This document shows positions 7,496 through 30,613 of a DNA stretch of 30,613 nucleotides, one piece after another. This stretch comes from an uncultured delta proteobacterium (GTDB lineage: Bacteria; Desulfobacterota; Syntrophorhabdia; Syntrophorhabdales; WCHB1-27), in the NCBI GenBank assembly GCA_963810935.1, contig CAWEPK010000002.1:1-30613 (forward strand), given 5' to 3'. Positions within the stretch are counted from its first letter, which is position 1, and every line of letters starts with the position of its first letter. The notes beneath the pieces are model-generated. The model was not told where the DNA came from. It was given only the letters and a program-made list of their open reading frames with translations, and did not search any database. A program made the translations under genes and the position numbers.

Positions 7496-7527
7496 CTTCT
7501 GAAGACTTACAAGCTAAGGGAGGTAAT

Positions 7528-7992: not shown

Positions 7993-8007
7993 GCGAAGGG
8001 GGACAAG

Positions 8008-11000: not shown

Positions 11001-11137
11001 GGGCGGTTATGCCCCAACTGGGCGCGGCGATGCGGGTTTGCAGCTTTACGGAGGTGAACACGGGCTTCGATGAACAGACCGCCTTGAGCGAGGCGAAGCG
11101 CTGCTTGCGATGTGACCTTGAAAGGAAGAAGGGGTAG
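8008..11137 (+). CDS. NuoF/HydB-like FMN/NAD subunit fused to a GltD/NfnL-like FAD/NAD(P) module (~1042 aa), with a +1 frameshift at CCC 9525-9527
   Basis: Thioredoxin-like 2Fe-2S N-terminus, [43 protein letters not shown]. Removing one C gives ...[26 protein letters not shown]...[16 protein letters not shown]...APCENTCP, in frame with ORF 9794..11137 ([36 protein letters not shown]). Confidence 0.9.
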
Positions 11138-11139
11138 AC

Positions 11140-13833
11140 ATGAGCACTATCAACCTGACAATAGACAACATGAAAGTCGAGGTGCCGGCAGGCGCCACCG
11201 TTTTCTGGGCCGCGAAGAAGGCCGGCATAGACATACCACACCTTTGTTACAGGGAGGGGCTGTCGCCGACGAGCGCGTGCAGGCTTTGCGTCGTGGAAGT
11301 GCAGGGTGCCCGGAACCTTTCCGCCTCGTGCTCGCTGCCGGTAACCAACAACATGGTCGTCAGCACGAATAGTCCGCGCGTGAAGGCAGCCCGTCGCATG
11401 GTGATCGAATTCCTTCTCTCCGACCACCCCTCCGACTGCATGACCTGCGAGAAGAGCGGGACGTGCGCGCTCGAAAAGTACGCCTACGAGCTCGGGGTCC
11501 GGAAAAGCGCATTCGAGGGCGAAAGGCACTCGTACCCGGTCCGTGACCAGAACCCGTTCTACGAGAGGGATTATAACAAGTGCATCCTTTGCGGCAGGTG
11601 TGTGACGGTCTGCCACGAGGTCCAGTACTGCGGCGCCGTCGATCTCACTCACAGGGGGTTTTCGACGAAGGTTGCCGCCTTCCAGGACGGCTCGATGCAG
11701 GGCACGACATGCGTATTCTGCGGCAACTGCGTGAGCGTCTGCCCCACCGGGGCGCTCACCGAAAAGGCCGGCCGGTTCCAGGGCCGCGACTGGGAGATGG
11801 AAAAGGTCCCCACGATCTGCTCGTATTGCGGCGTCGGTTGCACGATCGTCCTCAACGTGAAGGACGGCAAAGTCGTAAAGGCGACCACCGACAGGGAAAT
11901 GGGCATGAACAAGGGGTGGACCTGCGTAAAAGGGAGGTTTGGCTTCGACTACATCCATAGCCCCGACCGGCTCGCCTCGCCGCTTATAAAGGAAGGAGAA
12001 GCGTTCCGCAAGGCCGGCTGGGACGAGGCGCTGGACAAGGTCGCATCAGGCCTGAAAGAGGTAAAAGAGAAATACGGGCCGGACGCGATAGGCGTCCTCT
12101 GCTCGGCCAAATGCACCAATGAAGAGAACTACCTGCTGCAAAAGATCGCCAGGCAGGCCATCGGCACGAATAACGTCGACCACTGCGCGCGTCTCTGACA
12201 CAGCTCAACCGTCGCCGGGCTGGCGATGTCATTCGGAAGCGGCGCAATGACCAATTCCATCGAAGAGATAGGGAATGCAGACACGATCTTCGTGATCGGC
12301 TCGAATACGACGGAGAACCACCCCGTCATCGCCCTTGAAATCAAAAAGGCGGTCAGGAAGAGAGGGGCCAGGCTGATCGTGGCCGACCCGAGGAGGATCG
12401 AGCTCGTCGATTATGCCCACCTCTGGCTTGCCCAGAAGCCGGGCACCGACGTCGCGCTTATCAACGGCATGCTGAACGCGATCATCGAAAACGGCTGGAC
12501 GAACGAGAAATTCGTCGTCGAACGGACGGAAGGCTACGACGTGCTGGCCGAGTCCGTCAAGGCATACACGCCGGAAGCGGTCGAGGCGATCACCGGGGTA
12601 AAGGCGGCCGATATGGTCGAGGCCGCGCGCCTGTTTGCAACATCGGGGAGCGGATCGATCCTTTACTCGATGGGCATCACGCAGCATACGACGGGCACCA
12701 ACAACGTCCTCGCCCTGGCGAACCTCTCCATGATTACCGGGCAGATAGGCAAGCCCTCGTCGGGCGTCAACCCGCTGCGCGGCCAGAACAACGTGCAGGG
12801 CGCCTGCGACATGGGCGGCCTGCCGAACGTTTTCACGGCATACCAGAAGGTGGACGACGAGGCGGCCAGGACGAAATTCGAGAAGGCATGGGGCGCGACC
12901 CTTTCCGGCCACCCCGGTCTCACGCTCATGGAGATGATGAGCGCCATAGGCGAGGGGCGGATAAAGGCGCTCTTCATCATGGGCGAGAACCCGCTTTTGA
13001 CCGACCCGGACGGGGCAAAGGTGCGGCGCGAGCTTTCTCACCTCGACCTGCTCGTAGTCCAGGACATTTTTATGACCGAGACCGCCGAGGTCGCGAACGT
13101 CGTCCTGCCGGGCGTGAGCTTCGCGGAAAAGGACGGTACGTTCACCAACACGGAAAGGCGCGTGCAGCGGGTCAGGGCGGCCATAAAACCGATCGGCGAA
13201 GCGCGGCCCGACTGGCAGATCCTCTGTGACCTGTCTTCGCGGCTCGGCCTTCCCATGAGCTACAAGTCGCCGGAGGAGATCATGGCGGAGATCGCTTCAG
13301 TCACGCCCTCGTACGGCGGCATAACCTATGACCGGCTCGACAAAGGCGGGCTCCAGTGGCCCTGCCTCACGGCCGACCACCCGGGGACTACGTACCTGCA
13401 TAAGGGGCAGTTTACGAGGGGCAAGGGCAAGTTCCACGTTACGCCGTATATGCCCGCGCCGGAGCTGCCCGACGAAGAATACCCCCTGTGCCTGACGACG
13501 GGCCGCATGCTTTACCACTACCATGCAGTCATGTCTAGGAAATCGAAGCCGCTTTCGCAGATGGCGCCGGAGCCCATAATAGAGGTGAGCCGCGAGGACG
13601 CCAAAAAGATAGGCTTCAACGGGGAAGGGGCGCGGGTCGTCGTAGAGTCGCGGCGGGGGAGTGTGGTCGTCCAGGCGCGGGCGGTCGACCATTTGCAGCA
13701 AGGGCTCGTCTTCATGAACTTCCATTTCAGGGAGGCGGCGACAAACCTACTTACCCTCGACGCCCTCGATCCCGTCTCCAAGATACCGGGATACAAGGTG
13801 TGCGCGGTGCGGATCCGGAAGGAAACGGCGTAG
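11140..13833 (+). CDS. fdhA: Selenocysteine-containing Mo/W-bisPGD formate dehydrogenase alpha subunit (897 aa) with N-terminal NuoG-like Fe-S domains
   Basis: ORFs 11140..12198 and 12226..13833 are in the same frame and joined by TGA 12196-12198 in the catalytic motif [17 protein letters not shown]. Also [28 protein letters not shown]. Confidence 0.94.
12210..12228 (+). promoter_or_regulatory. Bacterial SECIS hairpin
   Basis: CGTCGCC-GGGCT-GGCGATG stem-loop with a G-rich apical loop, starting 11 nt after the UGA, as in E. coli fdhF. Confidence 0.8.
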
Positions 13834-13879
13834 GATCGGGTGCAGGGGCAATGCCCTCCAGGCGGGGTCCGAAATGCTG

Positions 13880-13909
13880 TTGACATAAAAGGTTCTTAGG
13901 TGATATTCT
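13880..13909 (+). promoter_or_regulatory. Sigma-70 promoter of the hydrogenase operon
   Basis: TTGACA-N18-TATTCT with extended -10 (TGaTATTCT). Confidence 0.7.
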
Positions 13910-13912
13910 TGT

Positions 13913-13930
13913 TCGTGATTTTCTTCACGT
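13913..13930. promoter_or_regulatory. Putative Rex operator
   Basis: TCGTGATTTTCTTCACGT palindrome resembling the deltaproteobacterial Rex motif TCGTGAAnnnnTTCACGA, overlapping the predicted +1. Confidence 0.6.
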
Positions 13931-14069
13931 TTCAACTTCCGCGCCCTGTTTTGACAAACAAGAGGCATTCAACGCATACAAAAATGGGTTCGCCGGGAGG
14001 GGCACGACGCATGCGCCGTTCTCAGCGATTCGATTATCCGGCCTAGTGTAACGAAAAGGAGGTAATAGT

Positions 14070-16223
14070 ATGTGGCAATTGAGGAATGATGCGCCAGCTA
14101 AAGTGGAGGCTGCGGTCAAGATATTCCTGCCGCCGTGCCAGAACAAGTGCCCGATCCGCGAAGACATCCAGCGGACGAACGTTCTAATCTCCTTGCTTCC
14201 CGAGGACCCAAAAGAGGCGCGTGAAGGCGTGCTGCAGATCGGTGACAGCCTCTACGAGAGGAACCCGTTTTTCACCGTCTGCGGTTACATCTGCGGCATC
14301 TGCGAGCGGGAATGCAACTACAAAACGAAGGGCGGCTCCATCAAGAGAAGGCTGCTCAAGCGCTTCCTCTCTGACACGTACACCCCCTTCCTCAAGGAGA
14401 AGAAGCCGATCGAGGCCGCGAAGACGGGCATCAAGGTGGCCGTCATCGGCGGCGGCCCCGGCGGGCTCATGTGTGCCTGGGAGATGGCCAAGAAAGGGCA
14501 CGACGTAACGGTTTTCGATAACAACCCGAAGCTCGGCGGCGCCATAAGGTATATCCCTAAATACCGCCTCCCGGAAGACGTGCTCGACGCAGCCGTGGAC
14601 AGCCTGGTGCGGATAGGCGGCATCAAGGTCGAGAAGAACGTGAAGCTGGAAGGTGACGTTATCACGAAGCTGAAAGAGCAGGGCTTCAAGGTTTTCTGCG
14701 TGGCCACCGGCACGCCCTACCCCAGGCCGCTGACTTTCGGCGTTGACAAGATCGAGTGGCAGGGCATGGAGGGCGTCGGCTACGGCCTGAGCATGCTCGA
14801 CGAGGCGGGAAGGGGCCTCCTTCCGCCTGACTACTATAAAGGAAAGAGAGTCGTCGTCATCGGCGGCGGCAACGTGGCCTTCGACGCAGCGAGGACTGCC
14901 TACAGGCTGGGCGGCCAGGTGACGGTCGTCTGCCTCGAGAACGAAGACAAGTCCACGCCGGACGGCATCCCGGCTGATGCGGAAGAGATAGAAGGCGCGA
15001 TCCAGGAAGGCATCAAGATCGTCTATTCCAGGGGCGTGCAGAACATAGTCGCGGAGAACGGCAAGTTCAAGAAACTCGACTGCCCGAAGTGTACGAGCGT
15101 CTTCGACTATAAGGGTTTCAACCCGCAGTTCGACTGCGCCGACTGCCAGGATGTGGAAGGCGACGTGCTTCTTATAACGATCGGCCAGATGTGGGACCGG
15201 ACCCTCCTGCAGAACTGTGGTCTTTTCGACCAGAGCGGCCGGCTAGCCGTAGACCCCCTCACCCGGAGGAGCACTCTGCGCGAGGATGTCTTCCTCGGCG
15301 GCGACGTAAGAAGGGTCGGTTTCATGGTCGATGCCATGGCGGAAGGCCGCGAGTCCGCACAGTCTATGGACCGGTACCTCCGCGGGATGTCTTTGCGGCG
15401 GTGGGGCCTGAGAAGGGAGTCCACCGGGACGCCGACGAGGCACAACTTCAAGGCGGAGCCCCACGCGAAATGGACGGCCCCTACCGAAAGGCAGAACTTC
15501 AATATGTTCGAGATAGGCCTGACCCTTAACGAGGCCAGGGAAGAGGCAAGGCGGTGCCTTGAGTGCGGGCCGTGCCCTGCCTGCAAGGCGTGCGTAACGG
15601 TCGGCCTCCAGCCCGACCTCCCCGCGGTTGAGGTTGACGAGTCGCTTTGCTCCGGATGCGGGGTTTGCGTTGCCGCCTGCAACTACGAGACGGCCCACGT
15701 CGTCGAGACAAAAGAGATCATCGAAGGCAGGGAGGTAAGAACCCGCCTCGTAAGCTATACCGACCCCGTAAAGTGCAAGGCGTGCGGCATGTGCGTAGCT
15801 GCCTGTCCGTCGGGCGCCAGGAGGCTCGACCCTGATCTTTCGCAGGCCGGGAAGATTGCCGAAAAGCCGGGCATCGTCACCTTCGCCTGCAAGTTCGGCT
15901 ACGGTTACTGCGGCAACGGGCTCGGTGCTGACATCAAGTCGTTCGTACCAGTCATCTGCATAGGCAAGGTAGATACCAGCGATATCCTGGATGCCTTCAA
16001 TAAAGGAGCGGAGGGCGTGCTCCTCCTGGGGTGCGGCGACGGCTCCTGCCACTTCCAGGACGGCAACGAAGAGGCGAGGAAGCGCATTTACCTGCTGCGG
16101 AGAGTGCTCGAATCCTTCGGGATCGAACAAGAAAGGGTGAAGGTCGTTACGTCCTTCGACCCGAAAGGGGCGGCCGTTGCGGGACTCGTTAACGAATTCG
16201 CGAACGAGCTCAAGGCTCTCTAA
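14070..16223 (+). CDS. GltD/NfnL-like FAD oxidoreductase fused to a 2x[4Fe-4S] ferredoxin domain and an MvhD/FlpD [2Fe-2S] domain
   Basis: PPCQNKCP, CGYICGICEREC, IGGGPGG, IGGGNVAFD, EARRCLECGPCPACKAC, CSGCGVCVAAC/CKACGMCVAACP, then MvhD-type FAC...VICIGKV...GAEGVLLLGCGDGSCHF...GIEQERV; AAGGAGGT RBS. Confidence 0.88.
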   Translation: MWQLRNDAPAKVEAAVKIFLPPCQNKCPIREDIQRTNVLISLLPEDPKEAREGVLQIGDSLYERNPFFTVCGYICGICERECNYKTKGGSIKRRLLKRFLSDTYTPFLKEKKPIEAAKTGIKVAVIGGGPGGLMCAWEMAKKGHDVTVFDNNPKLGGAIRYIPKYRLPEDVLDAAVDSLVRIGGIKVEKNVKLEGDVITKLKEQGFKVFCVATGTPYPRPLTFGVDKIEWQGMEGVGYGLSMLDEAGRGLLPPDYYKGKRVVVIGGGNVAFDAARTAYRLGGQVTVVCLENEDKSTPDGIPADAEEIEGAIQEGIKIVYSRGVQNIVAENGKFKKLDCPKCTSVFDYKGFNPQFDCADCQDVEGDVLLITIGQMWDRTLLQNCGLFDQSGRLAVDPLTRRSTLREDVFLGGDVRRVGFMVDAMAEGRESAQSMDRYLRGMSLRRWGLRRESTGTPTRHNFKAEPHAKWTAPTERQNFNMFEIGLTLNEAREEARRCLECGPCPACKACVTVGLQPDLPAVEVDESLCSGCGVCVAACNYETAHVVETKEIIEGREVRTRLVSYTDPVKCKACGMCVAACPSGARRLDPDLSQAGKIAEKPGIVTFACKFGYGYCGNGLGADIKSFVPVICIGKVDTSDILDAFNKGAEGVLLLGCGDGSCHFQDGNEEARKRIYLLRRVLESFGIEQERVKVVTSFDPKGAAVAGLVNEFANELKAL

Positions 16224-16247
16224 CCAGTAAGGCCTTAGGAGGAAGAT

Positions 16248-17228
16248 ATGGCTGATAAACCTAAAGTTGCGATAATGTGGCTCGGAGGCTGCGGCGGCTG
16301 CGATGAGGCGGTCGTTGACCTTAACGAGGAGATCCTCAAGGTCGTGAGCGCCGTCGACATCGTGCTCTGGCCCGTGGCCCTCGATTTCAAATACCATCAT
16401 ATAGAGGCGATGAAGGACGGTGAGATCGCCCTGGCCATTATAAACGGCTCGGTCAGGAACTCCGAGCTGGAGGAATTCGCAAGGGTGCTGCGCAGGAAAT
16501 CGCAGCTTGTGCTTGCCTTCGGCGCCTGCGCCTGCTTCGGCGGGACGCCGGCTCTCGCGAACTTCCGCTCGAAGGCCGACATCTTCCAGTGGGTTTATAA
16601 AGACGCGCCCACGGTGACGAACCCGAAGGAAAACTACCCGCAGACGGTTTCGACGGTCGACGGCCATGAGCTTACGCTGCCCGAGCTTTTCGAAGACGTC
16701 AGGACCCTCGACCAGGTGATCGACGTCGATTACTACCTGCCGGGCTGCCCGCCGCCCGTCAACCTGATACTCGGCGCAATCGGCGCGGTGCTTGAAGGCC
16801 ACCTTCCCCCGAAAGGCTCGACGCTCGCACCCGAGAGGGCGCTTTGCGACGTATGCGAAAGGAACAAAACGAAGCCCGAAAAGCTTTCGATCTCCAACAT
16901 AAAAAGGATACACGAGATAGAAGCCGACCCTGAAAAATGCATGCTGGCCCAGGGCGTCGTCTGCTCCGGCCCCGCGACGCGGGCCGGGTGCGGCGAAGTC
17001 TGCCTGAAAATCAATATGCCTTGCAGGGGCTGTTTCGGCCCGGTTGAAGGCGTCAAAGACATGGGTTCCAAATACCTTTCCGCCTTTGCTTCTCTCATTG
17101 ACGCTCCCAACCTTGATGAGGCGATGAAGGTAGTCGATACGCTCGACGACCCTACGGGATATTTCTATCGTTTCACGACGGCGTCCTCTCTGCTCCGGAA
17201 GAAGAGAGAAGCATCCAAAAAAGCGTGA
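16248..17228 (+). CDS. mvhG: F420-non-reducing (group 3c-type) [NiFe]-hydrogenase small subunit
   Basis: WLGGCGGCDE, WPVALDFK, FGACACFGG, YLPGCPP, CMLAQGVVCSGPATRAGC, MPCRGCFGP. Confidence 0.9.
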   Translation: MADKPKVAIMWLGGCGGCDEAVVDLNEEILKVVSAVDIVLWPVALDFKYHHIEAMKDGEIALAIINGSVRNSELEEFARVLRRKSQLVLAFGACACFGGTPALANFRSKADIFQWVYKDAPTVTNPKENYPQTVSTVDGHELTLPELFEDVRTLDQVIDVDYYLPGCPPPVNLILGAIGAVLEGHLPPKGSTLAPERALCDVCERNKTKPEKLSISNIKRIHEIEADPEKCMLAQGVVCSGPATRAGCGEVCLKINMPCRGCFGPVEGVKDMGSKYLSAFASLIDAPNLDEAMKVVDTLDDPTGYFYRFTTASSLLRKKREASKKA

Positions 17229-17237
17229 GGTGTGAGC

Positions 17238-18707
17238 ATGGGTAAAACAATTTCCATAAATCCGGTAACAAGATTAGAGGGGCACGGCAAGATCGACATA
17301 TTCCTCGATGACCAGGGGAATGTAGAGGACGCCTATTTCCAGGTGACGGAGCTGCGCGGCTTCGAGCGGTTCTGTATCGGCAGGCCCGTAGAGGAGATGC
17401 CCAGGATCGTGCCCAATATCTGCGGCGTCTGCCCCACGCCCCACAACATGGCGTCGACAAAGGCCCTGGACAAGGTCTTCGGCGTCGAGCCGACCGTAAC
17501 GGCGAAGCTCGTGCGGCAGCTCCAGTACAACGCCTTCTACATTGAAGACCATTACATCCATTTCTTTTTCCTCGGGGGCCCGGACTTCGTGGTGGGCCCG
17601 GATGCTAACCCGGCCGAGCGCAACATCCTGGGCGTTATCCAGAAGGTGGGCCTCGAGATCGCCGGTAAGGTGATCGAGGTCAGGAAGAGATGCAGAGACA
17701 TCATGCGGCTCTTGGGCAGCAAGGCGCCCCATCCTGAAGGCGGCCTGCCGGGCGGCGTGCCGAGGGGCGTGACCGAGGACGAGCGGGTCGTCATTAAAGA
17801 GACTGCCGACTACGCGGTAGAGTTCTCGAAGTTCGCCCTCCAGTTGTTCAAACAGGTAGTCGTCCAGAACCCGGATTACCTAAAGCTCGTGCTGGACGAC
17901 GCTTATGCCCTGAACACATTTTATATGGGCATGGTCGACGAGAACAAGTGCGTCAACTTCTACGACGGCAACATCAGGGTCGTAAACCCGGAGGGCAAGG
18001 AAAGGGCGCTCTTCGATCCGCAGTTCTATACGGACCACATAGCGGAGTGGGTCGAGCCCTGGACGTTCATCAGGCTCACCTACCTGAAGGTGCTCGGATG
18101 GCAGGGGTTGAAAGAAGGTTTCGGTTCGTCGCTCTACCGCGTCGGCCCGCTGGCCCGCCTCAATGCCTCCAAAGGCATGGCAACGCCGTTGGCGCAGGCA
18201 GAGTACGAAGAGATGTACGCGACGCTCGGGCAGAAGCCGGCGCACCATACACTTGCATTCCACTGGGCGCGGCTCATCGAAGCGATGCAGGCAGCCGAAG
18301 ACATGCAGCGGATAGCCAACGACCCGCTGCTCACCAGCAAAGACACCCGCAACATGGGCATGCGGCTCACCAAGAAAGGCATCGGCTGCGTAGAGGCCGC
18401 GCGTGGGACGCTGATCCACCATTACGAGACGGACGACAAGGGCCTGCTCACGAAGGCGAACCTGATCGTGGCGACCCAGCATAACGCAGCCCCGATCTGC
18501 TTATCTGTGAAGAAGGCGGCCCAGGGCTTCATCAAGGGCGGAGAGCCGAAAGAAGGCCTCCTCAACATGGTCGAGATGGCCTTCCGGGCCTACGACCCGT
18601 GCCTCGGCTGCGCGACGCACACGCTGCCGGGCAAGATGCCGCTGGAGATCGTGCTGCGCGACCGCCAGGGCAATATCGTCGACCGCATAGGCCGCAACCT
18701 GAAATAG
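17238..18707 (+). CDS. mvhA: Group 3c-type [NiFe]-hydrogenase large subunit
   Basis: TRLEGHG, ELRGFERF, L1 ICGVCPTPH, EAARGTLIHHY, L2 AYDPCLGCATH followed by a cleavable C-terminal extension; GAGGTG RBS before ATG 17238. Confidence 0.92.
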   Translation: MGKTISINPVTRLEGHGKIDIFLDDQGNVEDAYFQVTELRGFERFCIGRPVEEMPRIVPNICGVCPTPHNMASTKALDKVFGVEPTVTAKLVRQLQYNAFYIEDHYIHFFFLGGPDFVVGPDANPAERNILGVIQKVGLEIAGKVIEVRKRCRDIMRLLGSKAPHPEGGLPGGVPRGVTEDERVVIKETADYAVEFSKFALQLFKQVVVQNPDYLKLVLDDAYALNTFYMGMVDENKCVNFYDGNIRVVNPEGKERALFDPQFYTDHIAEWVEPWTFIRLTYLKVLGWQGLKEGFGSSLYRVGPLARLNASKGMATPLAQAEYEEMYATLGQKPAHHTLAFHWARLIEAMQAAEDMQRIANDPLLTSKDTRNMGMRLTKKGIGCVEAARGTLIHHYETDDKGLLTKANLIVATQHNAAPICLSVKKAAQGFIKGGEPKEGLLNMVEMAFRAYDPCLGCATHTLPGKMPLEIVLRDRQGNIVDRIGRNLK

Positions 18708-18722
18708 GGATAAGGAACAGAC

Positions 18723-18759
18723 CGCACGCCGTGCAAACCCTGCACGGCGTGCGTTTTTT
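18723..18759 (+). terminator. Intrinsic terminator-like hairpin after mvhA
   Basis: Perfect 13-bp stem CGCACGCCGTGCA / TGCACGGCGTGCG, 5-nt loop, then T6. Confidence 0.8.
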
Positions 18760-18765
18760 AATCAT

Positions 18766-19242
18766 ATGGCTATACCGAAAACACTGGTGCTCGGTCTCGG
18801 AAACACCATCCTCGGCGACGACGGCGTAGGTATCTGCGTAGTAAGGGAGATGCGCCGCACGTGGACGCCGGGTGCCGGCGTCGAGCTCGTCGAGGCAAGC
18901 CTCGGCGGCATGGTGCTTTTGGACCTTATCGCCGGATACGATCACGCAGTAATCGTCGACGCCATCATGACCCAGGACGATAAGCCGGCGGGCTTCATCT
19001 ACGAGCTTGCCCTGGACGACCTGGGAGAGCTGGTAGTGCCGTACGCCTCGCACGCCCTCGATTTGAAGACGACCATGGAGCTGGGCAACAGGCTGGGCTA
19101 CAAGATGCCGGAGACGGTGAAGATCTACGCAATAAAGATCGAGGAGAACACAATCTTCCGCGAGGAGCTGACGCCAGCGATCGACGCGGTCGTGCCAGTC
19201 CTGGCGAAGCAGATTGTGGCGGAGCTTAGCCCGCGCGCGTAA
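18766..19242 (+). CDS. Hydrogenase maturation protease (HycI/HybD family)
   Basis: LVLGLGNTILGDDGVG, VIVDAI, SHALDL. Confidence 0.92.
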   Translation: MAIPKTLVLGLGNTILGDDGVGICVVREMRRTWTPGAGVELVEASLGGMVLLDLIAGYDHAVIVDAIMTQDDKPAGFIYELALDDLGELVVPYASHALDLKTTMELGNRLGYKMPETVKIYAIKIEENTIFREELTPAIDAVVPVLAKQIVAELSPRA

Positions 19243-19259: not shown

Positions 19260-19543
19260 GGGGAATTCTCCAGGGGCTACGGCTAAAGGCGAAAGACGGT
19301 CGGACTCCTCCAGGTTTGGACTCGCGCCTGGAATGGATCGCGCTATGCGGCGCACTGCTCGCCGTGTGGCCTCCGATGTACGTATGTACGATCTCCGGCC
19401 GACACGGCTCACATTGCACCAATAATAGCGGGGCACCCGCCGTCCACAGGCGGGTCGCAACACGATCCCTTCCAGGCGCTCCTCCACAGCCGGCCGCCGC
19501 TAACGGAATAAAGAGCATATTATAAGGCGGCGGCAAGATCGGG
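19260..19543 (-). repeat. Copy A of a structured non-coding repeat (inverted partner at 23226-23357), interrupted by a 154-bp insertion
   Basis: The reverse complement reads CCCGATCTTGCCGCCGCC...TCCGTTAGCGGCGGCCGGCTGTGGAGGAG[insert]CGAGTCCAAACCTGGAGGAGTCCGACCGTCTTTCGCCTTTAGCCGTAGCCCCTGG, which aligns to 23226-23346. Confidence 0.85.
19325..19478 (-). mobile_element. MITE-like / structured 154-bp insertion with 15-bp terminal inverted repeats
   Basis: GCCTGGAATGGATCG (19326-19340) versus CGATCCCTTCCAGGC (19463-19477), 14/15 match. Removing it restores GGACTCGCTCCTCC exactly as in copy B. It can be read as a 152-bp element plus a 2-bp GC duplication. Confidence 0.6.
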
Positions 19544-19902
19544 TGGTACTGCGTCCTCGGCATGCCATACCAGAATATAGATTCCGATAGTGAAGATTTT
19601 CGGGTGGAACGTTCAATAGCCTTAGTAATCCTCAGTGGAAAAATAGTTCACCTGCAAACGCAGCCCCTCGCATCAAAATTAAAACGTCGCTATTACCATA
19701 AGCAACAAATATTTCAATATGAACGGTACGATCAACAAATCCCCCGTTGTTTTTATTGACAATCGTTATACAATGTTGTAAATATCTGAGAATCCTAAAA
19801 TTGAATTATGCGCTGACGGGGATGGAACGATAATTCGGCTATATCCGCCGGCTTCGGGAACAGGAGTACATCTGTAATTTAGGAAGCTCGTGGGGGGCGC
19901 CT

Positions 19903-22900
19903 ATGACGGAAAGGTCAGTCAGGCTGCGGGCGTTACTGAAAGCAGACATCTTCATTTTTGTTTGTCTCTTTGCTTTGTTTTCGGTCCCTCTTCGGGGCCT
20001 TGCCCAAACGAGCACTACGTGGAACGGGGCCACGGGCGCCTGGAACGTTCCGGCAAACTGGACGAACGGCATACCGTATTACGGCGTTGACGCACTCATA
20101 TCAGCCCCCAATTCCAACGTTACCATAAACACCGTCACCGGCTTCGGTAGCAATGGAAGCGCAAGGAACCTGACCCTTGGCTCGGACAACAACCTCTACC
20201 TTGCCGTCGGCATGAACCTTTCAGTCTTCGGCAGCAACTATAATGGTGTCAACGGTGATGGCGTCATAACCAATAACGGCGCCATAACCCTTTACGGCAA
20301 CAATTCCATCCTGGGATATGGCAGCTTGACGTTGGCCGGCTCGGGTACCCTGATTATGGACAGCGCCGGGACCAGCCAGATCGTTCCCAACGGCTTGAGC
20401 CCAGGCACCCTTATCAACGGTATAACCATCCAGGGCGCCGGCACAATCGGCGAAAATCTTGCCCTCGGCGGACATCTCGGTTTAGTCCTCACGAACACCG
20501 GCACGATCACCGCCGACCAGGGCAATGCCCTAAACCTTTACCTTAACGACGGCAGCACGAATTCCGGCACCATCCAGGCCACCTCTACGGGCGGGCTAAG
20601 TATCAGCCAGGCGGGCACCCTGACGAACGCGAGCGGCGGCTACATCCAGGCCGCCGGCGGGCCGCTTACCATGTCGGGGAACATTATTAACCGGGGCACC
20701 ATGCAGGCCGCGAACGGAACGCTTAATCTTGCGGCGTCGCCAACGGTCACCAACTCCGGCACCATACAGGCAAACGCTGGGGGCACCGTCATTTTCGGGG
20801 GCGGCAGCGCGATCAGCAATGCCGGTGGCGCGATAAGCGCGTCTGGGGGACATATCTCTTTCGGGACCGGCTTCGACAACACGGGCGGCGCGATCAGCGC
20901 GTCGGCGGGCGGCGGCATCGACCTTGGCAGCGGCACGTTCACCAACGGCAGTTTAACAGCGACAGGCTCGCTTATCAATACCTCGGGAACCCTCACGAAC
21001 ATGGCCATAACCATCGGCCAGGGCGCAGGCCTGCAGGTAAACGGCGGGACGCTGAACGCTTCAGGAACCATAACCAACAACGGCGGCATAAGCCTGAACG
21101 GCAACGCGACCCTCAACGCCGGAACGGGCATCCTGACACTTGCCGGCTTGGGCACCATGACAATGGACAGCAGCGGCAACAGCCGGATCATCGGCGGCTC
21201 AGGGGGCGCCCTCGTCAACGGTACGGGCCACACGGTCCAGGGGGCCGGCACAATCGGCGACGCAAGCGGCATAATTCTCACGAATAACGGCTCGATCACG
21301 GCCAACCAGGGCAACGCCCTCAACCTCTACCTGAACTCCGGCAGCACGAACTCCGGAACCATCCAGGCCACATCGACGGGCGGGCTGAACATCTACCTCA
21401 ACCCATTGTCGGGCGGCTTTTTCTCCGGTACGATCACCAATACGGGCAGCATAATGGCGGCGGGCGGGCAGGTAACCACGTATGGGAACATCGTCAACCA
21501 GGGCACAATGCAGGCCGCGAACGGTACGCTGAATCTGATGAATTCGGCAATCACCAACTCAGGCGCCATCCAGGCAAACGCGGGGGGCGCCGTCCTTTTC
21601 GCGATCGGCGGCACGACAGGCAATGCGGGCGGCAGCATCGGCGCGTCGGGGGGCGGCATAGTCAACCTGGGCGGCAGCACGGTTACGGGCGGCAGCATTA
21701 CAGCGACAGGCACAAACACCCGTATTTACAGCTCCTATATCACCAATCCGGGCAACACCACCCTTACGAACGTCTCCGTCAGCCTGGATCAAAACGCCGG
21801 CCTGCAGATCGATTCCGGGAAGACCCTGACCCTTGCCGGCTCCGGCGTGCTCGCATTATCGAGTTTCGGCGCGGTCGTAAGCGGCGGCGGCACGCCCGGC
21901 ACGATCATCAATGATACGGGATACACCATCCACGGCGCAGGGGCAATCGGAGCGGGGGCAGGCATAGTCCTTGCGAACAGCGGCACGATCACCGCCGACT
22001 CAAGCAGCCCTCTCAATCTTACCCTGGCCTCGGGCAGCACGAACTCAGGAACCATTCAGGCCACCTCGACTGGCGGAATATACATCAATGCGACGTCCGG
22101 TTCTTTCACGAACACGGGCACGCTGCATGTAGCCTCCGGAAGCGGTATGAACGTAACGGGCAATTTCACTAATTACGCCTCGGGCGTCCTGACGGGTGGT
22201 ACATACAACCTGGCGGGGATGCTGGTCCTGCCGGTGCCTACCGGTCAGACCATTCAGACAAACGCGGCGACTATCGTCCTCGACGGCGGCAATTCGTCGA
22301 TCTTCGGCCAGAACATGTCGAACGCCCTGACGGGCTTCGCCGCGAACTCAAGCGGCGGCAGCTTTACGGTCACCAACGGCCGCGCCTTCACGACTTCCGG
22401 GGCCTTCAGCAATGCCGGCGCACTGACCGTCGGGACAGGCAGCGCCTTTTTGGCCGGGAGCCCAGGCAGCCAGACGGTTTATACACAGACGGCCGGGACC
22501 ACGACGGTAAACGGCTGGCTGCAGGCTAGCTCCGTCTCTATACAGGGTGGCATCTTAAGCGGCGTCGGTACGGTCTCCCTTATCGCTGGCCCTTTGTCCG
22601 TTTCAAGCGGGGCTATCATCCATCCCGGCAACTCGCCGGGCATTCTGACGATCAACGGGACCTATAACAACGCCGGTACTCTTGCAATAGACATCCTGAA
22701 CCTCGCAGGCGGTCCCGGAACCGGCTACAGCCAGTTGATCGTCAACAGCACCGGAGTGAGCATACTTGGAGGCACGGTTCAGGTCAATCTCTTAACCGGC
22801 GGCGTGGTAACATCGGGCGATAGGTTCGATATACTGCATGCATCCGGAGGGCTGTCCGGCGCCTTCGCGCAGTTGGCCGGTAACCCGAATTTCTACCTTG

Positions 22901-23103
22901 ACTACGAGGCGAGCGACGTCTACCTCGTCGCCACCCCCATACCGCCGGGCATCATACTGCTTGCGCCTGGTCTGGCGGGCCTTTACGGACTGCGAAGGAG
23001 AATGGGGCGGAAGGCTGAACGCAAAAGGGAGATGCAAAGCGGCGCTTCAAGTCCTACCCGAACTCGCTACTATCCTGTTGCTCGAAATCCATTTGGAGTA
23101 TAG
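19903..23103 (+). CDS. Large secreted Gly/Asn/Thr-rich beta-repeat surface protein with a PEP-CTERM/VPLPA-type sorting signal
   Basis: Signal peptide ...LFALFSVPLRGLA|QTSTTWNG; three internal repeats containing GSTNSGTIQATSTGG; IHPGNSPGILTING; C-terminal TPIPPGIILLAPGLAGLYGLRRR. Confidence 0.85.
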   Translation: MTERSVRLRALLKADIFIFVCLFALFSVPLRGLAQTSTTWNGATGAWNVPANWTNGIPYYGVDALISAPNSNVTINTVTGFGSNGSARNLTLGSDNNLYLAVGMNLSVFGSNYNGVNGDGVITNNGAITLYGNNSILGYGSLTLAGSGTLIMDSAGTSQIVPNGLSPGTLINGITIQGAGTIGENLALGGHLGLVLTNTGTITADQGNALNLYLNDGSTNSGTIQATSTGGLSISQAGTLTNASGGYIQAAGGPLTMSGNIINRGTMQAANGTLNLAASPTVTNSGTIQANAGGTVIFGGGSAISNAGGAISASGGHISFGTGFDNTGGAISASAGGGIDLGSGTFTNGSLTATGSLINTSGTLTNMAITIGQGAGLQVNGGTLNASGTITNNGGISLNGNATLNAGTGILTLAGLGTMTMDSSGNSRIIGGSGGALVNGTGHTVQGAGTIGDASGIILTNNGSITANQGNALNLYLNSGSTNSGTIQATSTGGLNIYLNPLSGGFFSGTITNTGSIMAAGGQVTTYGNIVNQGTMQAANGTLNLMNSAITNSGAIQANAGGAVLFAIGGTTGNAGGSIGASGGGIVNLGGSTVTGGSITATGTNTRIYSSYITNPGNTTLTNVSVSLDQNAGLQIDSGKTLTLAGSGVLALSSFGAVVSGGGTPGTIINDTGYTIHGAGAIGAGAGIVLANSGTITADSSSPLNLTLASGSTNSGTIQATSTGGIYINATSGSFTNTGTLHVASGSGMNVTGNFTNYASGVLTGGTYNLAGMLVLPVPTGQTIQTNAATIVLDGGNSSIFGQNMSNALTGFAANSSGGSFTVTNGRAFTTSGAFSNAGALTVGTGSAFLAGSPGSQTVYTQTAGTTTVNGWLQASSVSIQGGILSGVGTVSLIAGPLSVSSGAIIHPGNSPGILTINGTYNNAGTLAIDILNLAGGPGTGYSQLIVNSTGVSILGGTVQVNLLTGGVVTSGDRFDILHASGGLSGAFAQLAGNPNFYLDYEASDVYLVATPIPPGIILLAPGLAGLYGLRRRMGRKAERKREMQSGASSPTRTRYYPVARNPFGV

Positions 23104-23225
23104 CAGCTTACAGATACAGCGTTTGCCGCTCGCTTTCAGGAAGTAGTTCTTGGACGCCCTGACATGTGCGATATGCTGAATACGCACCCTTACACTTATG
23201 ACACATCACCACAAATACCGCACAG

Positions 23226-23357
23226 CCCGCTCTTACTGCCGCCGAAGGGATGCGCGGAATGCTCCGTTAGCGGCGGCTGGCTGTGGAGGAGCGAGTCCAA
23301 ACCGAGGGAGTCCGATCGTCTTTTGCCCTTAACCCGTAGCCCCTGGGTAACTACCCC
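23226..23357 (+). repeat. Copy B (uninterrupted) of the structured non-coding repeat
   Basis: CCCGCTCTTACTGCCGCC...TCCGTTAGCGGCGGCTGGCTGTGGAGGAGCGAGTCCAAACCGAGGGAGTCCGATCGTCTTTTGCCCTTAACCCGTAGCCCCTGG; inverted homologue of 19260-19543. Confidence 0.85.
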
Positions 23358-23367
23358 TTCCCCCGCC

Positions 23368-23396
23368 TTGCATTTCCCCCGCCCTTCGCCTATAAT
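23368..23396 (+). promoter_or_regulatory. Sigma-70 promoter for rubredoxin-purC
   Basis: TTGCAT-N17-TATAAT. Confidence 0.7.
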
Positions 23397-23429
23397 TCCT
23401 ATCATCTAACGGCCAATAAGGAGGACGCT

Positions 23430-23588
23430 ATGGACACTTACACATGCGTTGTGTGCGGATACATCTACGATCCTAAAGAGGGCGATCCGGGCGCGGGCGT
23501 TGCTCCGGGTACGCCGTTCGACGACTTGCCCGATACGTGGGTGTGCCCGGTTTGCGGCGCGCCGAAGACGGAATTCGAAAAGAACTGA
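23430..23588 (+). CDS. Rubredoxin (52 aa; not in the ORF track)
   Basis: [62 protein letters not shown]. Confidence 0.96.
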
Positions 23589-23610
23589 TAAGCACCAGGA
23601 GGCATAAAGG

Positions 23611-24492
23611 ATGCTGCTCGAGACCAGGCTGGCGGGCATGGGTACGCCCAAAAAGGGCAAGGTGCGCGATATCTACGATCTGGGCGATGCGCTTCTGATC
23701 GTCGCGACCGACCGCGTCTCCGCCTTCGATGTCGTACTGTCTACAGGCATACCGGACAAGGGTAAGGTGCTCAACCAGCTTTCCCTTTTCTGGTTCGGGA
23801 TGATGGGCGATTTGGTTAAGAACCACGTGCTGGAGTCGGACGCGGACAAATATCCCGCCCCCCTGCTCAAGTACGCGGACGACCTGCGCGGCAGGAGCAT
23901 GATAGTCAAAAAGGCGAAGCCTTTTACGGTGGAATGCGTCGTCAGGGGATACCTGGCGGGCTCCGGCTGGTCGGAGTACAGGGAGAAAGGGAGCGTCTGC
24001 GGGCTCGGGCTGCCTTCCGGTCTTCGGGAGTCGGACCGCCTTCCCGAGCCGATCTTTACGCCGACGACGAAGGCCGACGAAGGGCACGACGAGGCGGTCT
24101 CCTTCGAGCAGTGCGCAACCATAGCAGGCCGGAAAGAGGCCGAGGAGCTAAGGGCCCTGACCATTGCGATCTACAAAAGGGCCGTCTCTTTTGCCGAGTC
24201 GAAAGGCATCATTATTGCCGATACGAAATTCGAGTTCGGCACAATCGGCAATGAGACGATCTTAATCGACGAGGTCCTCACCCCGGATTCGTCAAGGTTC
24301 TGGTCCGCACGTGACTACACGCCGGGCAAGGGCCAGGACAGCTTCGACAAGCAGATAGTCAGGGATTATCTGAATACATTGGACTGGGGGAAGACATACC
24401 CGGGGCCCGAGCTGCCCCCCTCGATAGTCGAGAAGACGGCCGCGAGGTACAGGGAGATTTTCGAGATACTGACGGGCGATCCGCTGAAGTGA
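23611..24492 (+). CDS. purC: SAICAR synthetase
   Basis: GKVRDIY, ATDRVSAFD, ECVVRGYLAGSGW, ADTKFEFG, DEVLTPDSSRFW, FDKQIVRDYL. Confidence 0.96.
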   Translation: MLLETRLAGMGTPKKGKVRDIYDLGDALLIVATDRVSAFDVVLSTGIPDKGKVLNQLSLFWFGMMGDLVKNHVLESDADKYPAPLLKYADDLRGRSMIVKKAKPFTVECVVRGYLAGSGWSEYREKGSVCGLGLPSGLRESDRLPEPIFTPTTKADEGHDEAVSFEQCATIAGRKEAEELRALTIAIYKRAVSFAESKGIIIADTKFEFGTIGNETILIDEVLTPDSSRFWSARDYTPGKGQDSFDKQIVRDYLNTLDWGKTYPGPELPPSIVEKTAARYREIFEILTGDPLK

Positions 24493-24540
24493 TGGACGAA
24501 GGGCGGAAAAAAGTCTGAAAAAAGATAGCGGAAGGGTCGA

Positions 24541-24578
24541 GGCACAGGGTCCCCGATGGAGGACCCTGTGCCGTTTTA
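24541..24578. terminator. Terminator hairpin between convergent purC and HU genes
   Basis: 12-bp stem GGCACAGGGTCC / GGACCCTGTGCC followed by GTTTTATT. Confidence 0.75.
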
Positions 24579-24582
24579 TTAC

Positions 24583-24855
24583 TTAAGACAGGGCGTCCTT
24601 CATTGCGCTTGCCGGTGAAAATTTGGGCGCTTTTTTCGCATGGATCTTGATTTCTTTCCCCGTGCGCGGATTTCTGCCCGTGCGGGCCTTCCTCTCCACG
24701 ACCGAGAACGTGCCGAAACCGGTGACCGTCACGCGATCGCCCTTCTTCAGAGAGTCCTTTACTGCCGCCACGAAGGCATCAATCGCCTTCTCCGCCTGGG
24801 TTTTTTTGATTGCCGCGCCTGCTGCCACTTTGTCGACAAGGTCTTTTTTAGTCAT
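24583..24855 (-). CDS. hup: HU family DNA-binding protein
   Basis: MTKKDLVDKVA...GFGTFSVVERKARTGRNPRTGKEIKI...PKFSP; AGGAGGTG RBS. Confidence 0.95.
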   Translation of the reverse strand: MTKKDLVDKVAAGAAIKKTQAEKAIDAFVAAVKDSLKKGDRVTVTGFGTFSVVERKARTGRNPRTGKEIKIHAKKAPKFSPASAMKDALS

Positions 24856-25091
24856 ATTCTTTCACCTCCTTTTTATCCAGGACTGTCGTTTTTATTAGTA
24901 AATTACACCCTCAAGGAAACATTGTACGTGTTTTTCAGGCGCAAGGAAATAAAAATCGCACTTATTACAAAGAAAAAAGATGGAAATTATCGAATGCCAG
25001 ACTTATTTTATAATTGTTCAACAGTGTGGGTATAGTATTTTTTTTCGTCCGCCGGCCGAAAGCGCCCGGCTATGCAGCCTGCGGTCTTTTT

Positions 25092-25120
25092 TTGCGTTTG
25101 TGAGAGGAATATGTTATCCT
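25092..25120 (+). promoter_or_regulatory. Putative promoter for rpsU, implying a long leader
   Basis: TTGCGT-N17-TATCCT with extended TG. Confidence 0.45.
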
Positions 25121-25308
25121 ACAAGTCGATATTTCTTCTGTTTTCGCACTTCCGTTCATTCGTACTAAAGCGATCGCAGACAGAGAGGTAGTCGGCGGCG
25201 GGATACATATGCGGGGTGGCACCTATTTTTTTTCGGTCATCCGGGTTGTTGGCTGTCCCGGGATGGCGGCCCGAACATTAAAACGCTAAATGCAGAAATG
25301 AGGTAAGT

Positions 25309-25515
25309 GTGGCGAACGTAGAGGTAAACGACGGAAACATAGAGAAGGCGATCAAGGCGCTCAAGCGCATGCTCCAGCGAGAAGGCATCCTCAAGGAGAT
25401 CAAGAGAAGGAGCTTTTACGAGAAACCGTCCGAAAGGGAGAGGCGCAAGCAGCGGGAAGCAAGGAAGCGGCGTCTTCGGGCGGAAAGAAGAAAACATGCC
25501 TCCGGCAGGGATTGA
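25309..25515 (+). CDS. rpsU: 30S ribosomal protein S21
   Basis: IEKAIKALKRMLQREGILKEIKRRSFYEKPSERERRK; GAGGT RBS, GTG start. Confidence 0.93.
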   Translation: MANVEVNDGNIEKAIKALKRMLQREGILKEIKRRSFYEKPSERERRKQREARKRRLRAERRKHASGRD

Positions 25516-25540
25516 TATCCGGGCGCGCCTTTAGGGCGCC

Positions 25541-26279
25541 CTAGATTCCCCACCCTCCAGACACGACAATTGTCGTGCCCGTTATATACGAGCCTGTCGT
25601 CGGACGCAAGAAAAGCGGCAGTTCGGGCAATTTCTTCCGGTTCCCCCATCCTTCCGACCAGCGTTTCAGCTACGATAGGCGCCCTGTATTTCTCCGGCAT
25701 CCGCTCCATGGGCGGCGTGCGGATGATGCCGGGGACTATCGCGTTGACCGTCACATTGTCGCGGCCGGCTTCGCGCGCGACCGTCTTCGTCATACCTATC
25801 ACGGCAGCCTTCGCCGTGCAGTAAGCGGCCTCCCCTTTAGCCCCTGTTAGCCCGTAAATCGAGCTGATGTTTATGATCCTGCCCCAGCCTGCTTCGCGCA
25901 TCCCCGGCAAAAGGAGCTTCGTCAGGACGAAGGGGACGAGCACGTGTATGCCGAGCACCTCGCCGAAGCCCTTCTTGTCCACCCTGGATGTCGTACCCGG
26001 CCGGTCAAAGCCCGCGTTGTTCACCAAAATGTCGATCGACGCCTTGCCCTTGATCGCCTCTATCAGGGCTTCCAGCTTCCCGGTGTGCATAAGGTCGATT
26101 ATGTGGCCTTCCACGTGTCCGCCTGCCGCCGCTATGCCTTCGACTACGCCCGGCAACGTCCGCCTGTTCTTGTCCAGAAGGATGAGCCGTGCGCCTCTTC
26201 CGGCGAAGACCTGCGCGCACGCGCGGCCGATGCCCTGGCCCGCGCCCGTAATGAGCGCCGTATGTCCTGATAAATCCAT
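25541..26279 (-). CDS. SDR / FabG-like oxidoreductase (~245 aa), with a +1 frameshift near 25595
   Basis: TGAGQGIG, LVNNAG, NISS, YCTAK. Removing one base after FLASD restores the typical SYITGTTIVVSGGWGI* ending at 25541. Confidence 0.88.
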
Positions 26280-26548
26280 ATTTGCCTCTCCGCTATTTTA
26301 AGCGAGAACTGCCGCCGATAGCAACATGATCGTAGGGGGCGCCCGCCGCAGACATATTATTTCGCGGGGCGTCCGGGCGGCTGATATTGCATACAATCGT
26401 CCCTCGCCGTATCGGCAAAAAAGACTTGTATTCCGGCTTTTTCCTGCCTAAAATAAAAGCACAAACAGATGTAATCCGTACAAAAGGTGTAAAGTGCGCC
26501 CGCAAGACGGGAATACCTGAATAGATGGTAGAGACGGAGGCAAGAGCG

Positions 26549-27343
26549 GTGCTTGCAATAGGCGAGCGGATCAACGCGTCGCGTAAATCGATAGGCGAAG
26601 CCATCGCCTTGCGCAACGCGGAGTTCATCCGGAATGAAGCCAGGGCGCAGGCCGCGGCAGGGGCCGACTACCTGGACGTAAACGCCGGGACCTCCGATTG
26701 CAGGGAGGCCGAAGACCTGAAATGGCTCGTCGAGGTCATCCAGCGTGCGACGGACACCCCCCTGTGCATCGACAGCCCCGACCCCGCCGCAATCAGGGCG
26801 GTGCTTCCGCTGGTGGAAAAGACGCCCATAATCAACTCGATCACCCTGGAGCCCGCGCGCATGGAAGGCATCCTCCCTCTCGTCGCCCAATATAAGGCAA
26901 AGGTCATTGCCCTCTGCCAGTCGCTTGATGCGATAGCCGAGACGACAGAGGCGAAGGTACAAATGGCTGCCGAGCTTGCAGCTAAGACAAAAGAGGCGGG
27001 CGTCCCCATAGGCGACCTTTACATCGACCCACTCGTCTACCCGGTTGCGACCAATAAGCTATCCGCAATGGCCACCCTCGCGGCAATCGAGGAGATTATG
27101 GCGCGGCTGCCCGGCGTACACACGACCTGCGGCCTGACGAACGTCTCTTTCGGGCTTCCCAAAAGAAAGCTCGTCAACCGGGCCTTCCTGGTCGTCGCCG
27201 TTGCCAGGGGCCTAGATTCAGCCATCCTCGACCCTACCGACAATGAGCTTTTCGGTACGCTCAAGGCTGCCCTTCTGATCAGCGGACACGACGACTACTG
27301 CATGGAGTTCATCAAGGCCTTCAGAGAAGGAAGGTTGGGATGA
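26549..27343 (+). CDS. Methyltetrahydrofolate:corrinoid methyltransferase, AcsE-like (pterin-binding family)
   Basis: IGERINASRK, ADYLDVNAG, PLCIDS, IINSIT, YIDPLV, GLTNVSFGLP, GLDSAILDP; GGAGG RBS favours GTG 26549. Confidence 0.85.
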   Translation: MLAIGERINASRKSIGEAIALRNAEFIRNEARAQAAAGADYLDVNAGTSDCREAEDLKWLVEVIQRATDTPLCIDSPDPAAIRAVLPLVEKTPIINSITLEPARMEGILPLVAQYKAKVIALCQSLDAIAETTEAKVQMAAELAAKTKEAGVPIGDLYIDPLVYPVATNKLSAMATLAAIEEIMARLPGVHTTCGLTNVSFGLPKRKLVNRAFLVVAVARGLDSAILDPTDNELFGTLKAALLISGHDDYCMEFIKAFREGRLG

Positions 27344-27364
27344 CTTTTGCATATGGGGAGATAA

Positions 27365-29164: not shown

Positions 29165-29194
29165 CGAGGAAGCCGGCGCTGGGTGTGAGGCCGG

Positions 29195-29719
29195 CTATCG
29201 GGAGGCGATCTGCCTGCCGATGACTGCGCCCGCCGCAACGCCCAGGGCCAGTAAGCCTATCGTTCTTCCCAGGCCGAGACCGCTCGCCGCAACGCCAAGC
29301 CTGCTTTCGATAAAAGCGAGGTGGCGCCGCTCGTCTGCGTAATGCCTTTCGATCAGGACCATTATCCGGCCGGGGAAGTCCTCATTGGCCGCCTGCCTGT
29401 ACTTGTATCCGACGTATTTCTCTCCCGTCGCACAGGCATCCAGAATGTCGCGGTCGCTCATCGCCCCTTCCGCTGCGGTCATCCCTTCGAAGAAGACGCC
29501 ACGCGGCGCCATCGACATGTCGGGCGGCTCGCCGCCTTCCCTCCTGATCGCCTCGCCGAAGTCTCCGACGTGCCTCTCGTGTTCATGCCGGAAGCGCAGC
29601 AGGGTGTCCTGCAGATCTTGGTCCCTCACCGCAGCAGCGGCCTTGTCGTACGCAGACAGCGCGTCGTGGTCCAGCTTCATAAGGGAACTTAGTCTGTCGA
29701 TCAGATCACGGCTTTCCAT
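29195..29719 (-). CDS. Ferritin-like (DUF2383/PA2169-type) protein with a C-terminal hydrophobic helix
   Basis: LDHDALSAYDKA, FRHEHERHV, DERRHL; GGAGGT RBS. Confidence 0.8.
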   Translation of the reverse strand: MESRDLIDRLSSLMKLDHDALSAYDKAAAAVRDQDLQDTLLRFRHEHERHVGDFGEAIRREGGEPPDMSMAPRGVFFEGMTAAEGAMSDRDILDACATGEKYVGYKYRQAANEDFPGRIMVLIERHYADERRHLAFIESRLGVAASGLGLGRTIGLLALGVAAGAVIGRQIASR

Positions 29720-29829
29720 GGTTACCTCCCCGACCGTCCTTGGGCTTTTCGCTTCCGAAACATAGTGCCTCCGCTGTATGAAATCAAGGAGTGGGAGGTG
29801 TGCTCCCCCGGCCTACGCATATCAGCGGC

Positions 29830-29857
29830 TTGACTTTGGCGTATTTTTGACTATAAT
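29830..29857 (+). promoter_or_regulatory. Sigma-70 promoter directly upstream of rplC
   Basis: TTGACT-N16-TATAAT, followed by a GGAGGTG RBS. Confidence 0.7.
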
Positions 29858-29878
29858 AGTACTCTTCGGAGGTGTAAG

Positions 29879-30524: not shown

Positions 30525-30556
30525 GGCTACCCCGACCATAAGCGAATACGATTTCA

Positions 30557-30591
30557 AGAATCCCCTGCATCCCAAGGACGCAGGGGATTTT
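30557..30591 (+). terminator. Terminator hairpin after rplC
   Basis: AATCCCCTGC / GCAGGGGATT stem with T-run, extendable to ATTTC/GAAAT. Confidence 0.7.
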
Positions 30592-30613
30592 GAAATTATT
30601 GGGGCTCAGCACC

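Follow-up and report, generated by a model that had tools for sequence, protein, structure and literature searches.

Structured bacterial MITEs have terminal inverted repeats (TIRs) in common with an insertion sequence (IS), are bounded by target duplications and fold stably, and in one of them, bcr1, the fold has been maintained through compensatory changes (available part of PMC3184786). The repeat studied here resembles several of those covered in that part of the source, namely Correia/nemis, ERIC, Nezha, Chunjie and bcr1, in being non-coding, multicopy and often located near gene 3' ends. Its central hairpin, hereafter the rod, also resembles the REP/BIME sequences associated with TnpA(REP) and TIRYT proteins (subclass 2.1 in the available part of PMC6006769), which are modular, reshuffled, strand-specific hairpins and targets of IS110-family elements. 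A further likeness, judged by eye, is with Gmet_R4001-R4006 of Geobacter metallireducens, for which the part of PMC2700814 at hand (Additional file 19, panel b) gives an alignment only. These sequences are about 140 bp long. One copy has ends of the GGCTGTTGAAAAA type, TCTGCG stands close to the 5' side, CCTC comes after an ACGTAC-loop-GTACG cap, and the return arm contains GCATC, a layout that is also that of the stand-alone rods described below.

The window, that is, the whole stretch of DNA that we analysed, spans 30,613 nucleotides of contig CAWEPK010000002.1 of an uncultured delta proteobacterium (source genome G000: 4.06 Mb, 21 contigs, 93% complete). It contains two copies of one repeat, A (19260-19534, plus strand) and B (23238-23356, minus strand), the flanks of A reappearing inverted at 23263-23356. 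Copy A is filled by a 154-bp segment (19325-19478) that B lacks and that is intergenic, 3' of a hydrogenase maturation protease gene. An earlier note on this DNA had claimed that A equals B plus exactly this segment. Indeed, A reads GGACTCGC, rod, GCTCCTCC over 19318-19485, the minus-strand junction of B (23298-23285) reads GGACTCGCTCCTCC, and deleting 19325-19478 from A recreates the latter exactly. The equality is local, as the flanks are 97% identical over 31 nt and 85% over 61 nt, and loops and tails farther out differ. Contigs assembled from public runs span the short junction of B without gaps (X1, X2, X3) and the filled junction of A (X2); these contigs come from four runs of one study, possibly of the source sample. 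The empty and the filled state are both real DNA.

Several features surround the two copies. A duplicate contig (C18:1-9593), probably from a second strain, is 98% identical to window positions 21012-30613 and likewise bears a rod-less copy B. Upstream, a NiFe hydrogenase operon with NuoEF-like, molybdopterin and FlpD-domain proteins (7297-19242) stops just before copy A. Between the inverted copies lies a gene for a repeat-rich protein of 1066 aa (19903-23103), which had no match in Pfam or NCBIfam. Synteny with the sister species G002 ends at A and restarts past B, and the 1066-aa protein is present there only as a 66-69% paralog elsewhere, which suggests that the interval from A to B is a variable slot. 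We considered A and B as the ends of a composite transposon around this gene and rejected the idea, as no common duplication was seen by eye.

Our results suggest, with good though incomplete confidence, that A and B belong to a dispersed repeat descended from MITEs and built of three parts (a left tail, a rod, and a second hairpin with a tail), that the segment is its central part, the rod, and that copy B lost this rod. In copy A the left tail (19260-19317, plus strand) begins 18 nt past the stop codon of the hydrogenase maturation protease and varies among copies; over 15 copies in the sister species G001 its 50 nt have a mean identity of 58%. The left junction GGACTCGC (19318-19325, plus strand) is constant in the family and includes a CGC microhomology. 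The rod (19325-19478) folds best on the minus strand and is usually about 122 nt long, reaching 154 nt in A owing to a side hairpin. Its most conserved portion is a GTAC-N4-GTAC cap (19378-19389), which adjoins a G-N-A/G-N-A internal loop; in other copies, this region is the target of an IS1111-type element. The side hairpin (19419-19461) is a separately shuffled module, found also in another repeat at C15, in two other rods of G002 and, inverted, in the opposite arm of a rod in G003. After the right junction GCTCCTCC (19478-19485, plus strand) comes the second hairpin (R hairpin, 19493-19534), with a structure that is conserved across genera and a sequence that is not. The right tail (19535-19660, plus strand) fades out without a sharp end and is, by eye, about 70% like some G001 tails. 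Copy B has the left tail, the rod-less junction and the R hairpin, its tail extending to about 23110.

The segment had been read in the earlier note as an undescribed MITE or mobile structured RNA that targets another repeat, a reading to be given up if the rod were only ever found inside this repeat, as it would then be an internal domain deleted in B. A rod-only profile gave 32 hits in G000, corresponding to 27 loci, 25 of which belong to the family of A and B; the other two are weak (E 0.002 and 0.006) and represent a cousin family with other flanks. The rod in G000 is thus confined to this repeat. The left junction is kept in 24 of the 25 family loci and both junctions in 22 (20 intact, two split by an IS); two loci retain the left junction only, one of them stopping at a contig edge, and the leftover locus is truncated. 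The 154-bp segment is an internal mosaic domain of the repeat and not an independent unit.

What, then, of its ends? The first and last 15 nt do pair at 14 of 15 positions, as had been noted, and together with the precise presence and absence of the segment they invite the reading that it is an independent MITE, mobile at present via its 15-bp ends and inserted into A, with B as the untouched target. The end motif GCCTGGAA.GGATCG is, however, present solely at the two segment ends of copy A. The closing stems of the other copies fall into several sequence types, every one of them paired, so that the terminal sequences of the 154-bp segment pair but, unlike the TIRs of a MITE, are not conserved between copies. 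The CGC at both ends can be taken for a 3-bp duplication, but it also belongs to the stem and to the constant junction. Moreover, nearly all loci are filled, and the rod of A with its side hairpin was inherited at the orthologous site in G002 (95% identity). Distant genomes do contain homologous rods that are free-standing and have TIR-like ends, which makes an ancient insertion into an ancestor of the repeat plausible; the present-day mobility of the 154-bp piece is largely refuted, and we regard the independent-MITE reading as extremely unlikely. The link to MITEs proposed earlier survives for the whole repeat and for the distant stand-alone relatives, and fails for the 154-bp piece. Apart from this family, G000 holds hundreds of short hairpin repeats of several families. 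Among them are about 40 cousin rods with the same GTAC cap and, at C12:369295-369572, an ISAs1-type MITE of 278 bp whose 10-bp duplication is near-perfect.

The direction of change can be judged from the sister species. The site orthologous to copy B, with the same small gene and purC downstream, is filled in both: in G002 by 132 nt without the cap, in which a GCGCC/GGCGC outer stem is retained, and in G001 by about 190 nt made of other modules of the family. CGC stands at both feet of the stem, and B is joined at CGC. Taken together, the filled sister sites and the join at a microhomology indicate that B most likely lost its rod by a deletion at the hairpin base, which was the second and, as it turns out, the better of the two readings offered in the earlier note. 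There are parallel losses: C8:335901 has lost the inner arm between two CGC repeats, and in G014 a form of the MITE lacking the rod (L483) is joined at GGCCGGT and lies within a perfect 10-bp duplication. Slippage at hairpins with short direct repeats has been demonstrated in vitro (available part of PMC4134008), and fits all three cases. The fillings of the B site differ in the three species (none, 132 nt and about 190 nt), and independent insertions would give a similar picture. We identified 17 elements in 0.75 Mb of G002, nine of which could be placed automatically on G000. Five are in both species, three of these with exchanged arms or stems; among the other four, one is inverted, one is a remnant and two correspond to other sequence in G000. 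No clean empty site with a duplication was found among these nine loci. Orthologous loci of G000 and G002 thus show module swaps and an inversion.

The rod is a real, conserved single-strand fold. On the minus strand the segment folds at -92.4 kcal/mol (z -7.70; none of 200 shuffles equal), and the features described for it earlier are borne out in the minus-strand centroid: a closing stem extended by G-U pairs, the side hairpin, tandem GA, the GGA/GGA loop and the GTAC cap. The claim that folding is specific to one strand fares differently at two levels. In copy A alone there is little bias, the plus strand reaching z -7.25, whereas at the level of the family it is clear, the strand equivalent to minus folding with the better z-score in 36 of the 37 rods sampled (every other one of 73). 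The suggested constraint on single-stranded structure is supported by covariation. In an alignment of 33 rods, 21 of 38 pairs had changed on both sides, a value that no shuffle in 500 attained and that compares with 6-8 pairs in slid controls. These rods come from nine genomes, including G001, G002, G004, G008, G011, G014 and G021, the copies of G000 and rods with nested inserts being left out; the structure was predicted from the same alignment, and the rods are kin that are not independent, the test having no correction for phylogeny. Strand-neutral counts of arm-to-arm mismatches in 73 rods agree: G-T 181 against A-C 9, and G-A 112 against C-T 9. Repeat copies are related, so these counts overstate the independent events; in distinct contexts the figures are 29 G-T against 8 A-C. 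Pairing and the G-T and G-A mismatches are therefore kept on one strand. The 40 cousin rods of family F2 in G000 show no such bias (G-T 41, A-C 45). No Rfam 15 family matched the window at gathering level, only chance hits being returned (E 3-6.5), and among the loci of genera g9 and g5 and the stand-alone loci Rfam recognized no family except a tRNA.

Could such a fold arise without any function? Template switching could perfect a palindrome and mimic compensation, and a strand bias could stem from a few master copies. Arm-to-arm copying would give stems that are specific to each copy and perfectly paired, and in G024 each copy does have its own, perfectly paired stem sequence; rod-less copies also persist. 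Such copying would nevertheless erase mismatches, and the G-N-A loops and tandem G-A are kept. The same bias recurs in nine stand-alone rods of very different sequence (G-T 20 against A-C 1, G-A 12 against C-T 1, z-score bias in 9/9), and in the 15 copies of G001 the rods are 88% alike whereas the tails on both sides are 58% alike. We thus find a functionless fold very improbable and retain the view that selection acts on the structure.

The family is widespread among relatives of the host. The best hits of the host's purC gene, at 67-68% identity, are to a Syntrophorhabdaceae MAG and a 'Syntrophus sp.' MAG, so that the host may be Syntrophorhabdaceae-like. A covariance model had hits in 42 of the order's 96 genomes, including all 21 searched in the host's taxonomic family and 20 of 69 in another family; across the phylum it matched 8 of 151 genomes, the distant matches being weak (E ~1e-4). 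In genus g9 (G024 and G030) the whole unit is a MITE of 360-430 bp with 16-bp TIRs and duplications of 8-9 bp, the latter having at most two mismatches in 10 of 14 TIR pairings, one of the 14 being a spurious second pairing. Four more rod-bearing copies with perfect 8-bp duplications were found among 120 metagenome loci. The 20 rods of g9 share the mismatch bias (G-T 47 against A-C 9, G-A 39 against C-T 1), with a weaker strand preference (10/14; in distinct contexts, G-T 15 against A-C 9). At one metagenome locus the g9 TIRs, down to the difference between left and right, also bound a transposase of 484 aa. This protein matches Pfam DDE_Tnp_IS240 with 39 bits (cut-off 27) and NCBIfam IS6 with 75 bits (cut-off 125), and as the putative partner of the g9 MITE it is best called IS6-like only. 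It was found in 3 of the 96 genomes of the order and not in G024 and G030 themselves. Read outward, the g9 TIR gives TTGACA, and numerous long ORFs begin 20-45 bp beyond it (L283-L322), suggesting possible hybrid promoters.

Genus g5 points to another vehicle. In G014, a member of the host's taxonomic family, an inward TIR of ISAs1 type lies near 9 of 18 rods (two of them at three mismatches), against none outward, and G001 encodes an ISAs1 transposase with ends of the G014 type and 10-bp duplications. An ISAs1 end was also found at 2 of 17 rods of G001, one of them exact, against one in the control. The one complete rod-bearing g5 copy examined (L491) has both TIRs and is missing a clean duplication. 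Over both genera the whole repeat has what characterizes a MITE: TIRs, target duplications and an IS whose ends match. In the host and in G002 these traces are not visible. No TIR of IS6-like or ISAs1 type was found at 16 rods of G000 or 17 of G002, a generic scan for TIRs plus duplications over 80 rods gave two distinct chance-like hits, none of them at rods of G000 or G002, and tblastn for ISAs1 and IS6-like transposases returned none in G000 (93% complete). Negative family searches are soft, because a Pfam search for Y1 in G000 missed a TIRYT gene that tblastn found.

In distant genomes the rods stand alone as elements of 124-127 bp with inverted ends. For the 126-bp ones in G042, G121, G154 and G186 (L493-L522), counts by eye gave TA at one flank of 12 out of 19 and at the opposite flank of 3 out of 18, with no target duplication. 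Other candidate movers were considered and set aside. IS256 was not found as partner of the g9 TIRs in G024, G030 or G000, and its copies in G001 bear other ends; one of the 120 metagenome loci (L403) has an IS256 gene with the g9 16-mer at one end and no duplication. For the stand-alone rods, no match to IS1182/IS5 (PF05598) bore such ends, and no transposase lay 3' of the ends in 30 loci. A mover based on reverse transcriptase finds no candidate in G000 or G002 (PF00078); PF00078 had matches in 3 of 5 genomes, and the window holds no intron hit in Rfam. Searches of plasmid and phage collections by blastn gave no match.

The strand-specific fold with tandem G-A suits single-stranded DNA as well as RNA. 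The rod might accordingly be a cassette that an HUH (Y1) nuclease, supplied in trans, cuts out and exchanges in the form of single-stranded DNA, each time into the same junction, in the manner of REP/BIME or PATE elements, with empty junctions as excision products or unused sites. This would suit genus g1, where there is no target duplication, the orthologous pair L195 and C17:90588, in which both arms of the outer stem have been exchanged together and the inner arm is unchanged, and the one-sided TA of the duplication-free stand-alone rods (12/19 against 3/18). Nucleases are at hand: G000 has seven IS200-type genes and one TIRYT gene, and of 16 loci with Y1 genes of TIRYT type, 6 have a GTAC-cap element or its tail at a distance of no more than about 450 bp, an uncontrolled count. 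Yet the same intergenic regions are crowded with mobile elements, the nearby Y1 genes bear GGGG-type TIRs of their own, this subclass has no REP-like partners in the available part of PMC6006769, and the flanks of the G000 TIRYT gene that we examined hold no rod. Where ends are intact, they are TIRs of DDE type with duplications. We therefore consider the nuclease cassette unlikely, if less so than a functionless fold. As separate observations, TIRYT genes of G001, G004 and G014 (L237, L242, L249, L250) in many cases terminate in tandem repeats copied from their own TIR, and partial duplications similar to these are seen in some left tails of G014. In G000, a 654-bp IS200-type element is found at C5:31332-31985 and six more places, its flanks suggesting insertion after TAAT; four of the seven lie directly beside members of a third repeat family, which has the element's CCGGCAAAGCCGG hairpin and is a candidate non-autonomous partner.

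We favor the descent from MITEs, in which the unit had TIRs and duplications that are still seen in relatives (IS6-like ends in g9, ISAs1 ends in g5) and whose ends have become unrecognizable in the host genus. While its ends were intact, the repeat would have spread as MITE cargo by DDE transposition in trans. At present, copies may change mainly at the junction motifs that they share, where recombination or gene conversion would swap stems, arms and side hairpins. In copy B, the rod would have been deleted by replication slippage from one CGC repeat at the base of the folded hairpin to the other. DDE transposition acts on double-stranded ends, and the rod-less G014 element lies in a perfect duplication; the rod was thus probably dispensable for movement. 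Because this mode of transposition needs no single-strand fold, selection may instead act on the folded strand of transcripts, most likely read-through transcripts at gene 3' ends, where the rod could have a stabilizing, processing or terminating role, so that insertions would be tolerated. The family loci do lie near gene 3' ends, and the left end is 3' of a gene in the same direction in 20 of 25 loci (crude ORF calls). A rule of sense or antisense orientation was rejected, as both sides favor gene 3' ends and orientations in tandem intergenic regions are nearly equal (8 against 5); they give no sign of which strand is transcribed. The job of the fold is the weakest step of this scheme, and selection on transcripts would be the simplest reason for a one-sided fold.

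Rods and repeats are themselves targets of IS elements. An element of 1.5 kb, which we take to be of IS1111 type from its layout and DEDD-like start, has four copies in G000 (C17:17173-18698, C17:104561-106086, C7:15874-17400 and C5:83374-84894). Three of them interrupt rods, two of the family of A and B and one cousin, at CCGGAG beside the cap; the fourth sits in a gene that contains the same target sequence. A second multicopy element, presumably IS110-like from the start of its protein, sits in the third repeat family (C18:9574-10885, C10:159199-160507 and C7:218148-219415). The downstream non-coding region of the 1.5-kb element contains a complement to the top strand, ACGTACGC, corresponding to the right half of the target, and then a match to the bottom strand, CCCGGAG, corresponding to the left half. 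In the seekRNA of IS1111 the top-strand complement likewise precedes the bottom-strand match (available part of PMC11187229), and like IS1111 the 1.5-kb element has sub-terminal inverted repeats. Unlike the vehicles discussed above, this element is a parasite of the rod and not its mover, with a guide role predicted from sequence. More speculatively, the GTAC-capped rod and its neighbor hairpin could be a widespread, uncatalogued single-stranded device of Desulfobacterota-type anaerobes that is advantageous to mobile elements. It would have been captured repeatedly by unrelated transposons, its cassettes would be exchanged in place by a mechanism of its own at the level of single-stranded DNA or RNA, and RNA-guided IS1111 elements would have evolved guides against its invariant cap. 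We regard this as rather unlikely, although slightly less so than the nuclease cassette.

A lone difference between two copies, in which one has lost a hairpin, is ordinary. From the family behind it comes a covariance model, and the repeat occurs in every one of the 21 genomes searched in the host's taxonomic family; copies A and B form a natural pair with and without the rod, and the IS1111 element and its target a natural candidate pair of guide and target. In the open literature we found no description of the rod family beyond the Geobacter list, and we see it as an undescribed branch of a known class, the structured MITE-like repeats. From what the available part of PMC2700814 depicts, the Geobacter sequences differ from the repeat of the host in standing alone, without second hairpin, tails or fixed junctions. 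Compared with REP/BIME, the rod is much longer, no GTAG-type foot was seen, and no dedicated, flanked Y1 gene was found. Unlike known structured MITEs, the repeat of the host genus has no detectable TIRs or duplications, and a single fold is common to the MITEs of two unrelated transposase families. That one conserved fold should recur in unrelated vehicles and also alone is unusual for the interior of a MITE, and suggests that the fold has a function of its own, whatever moves it.
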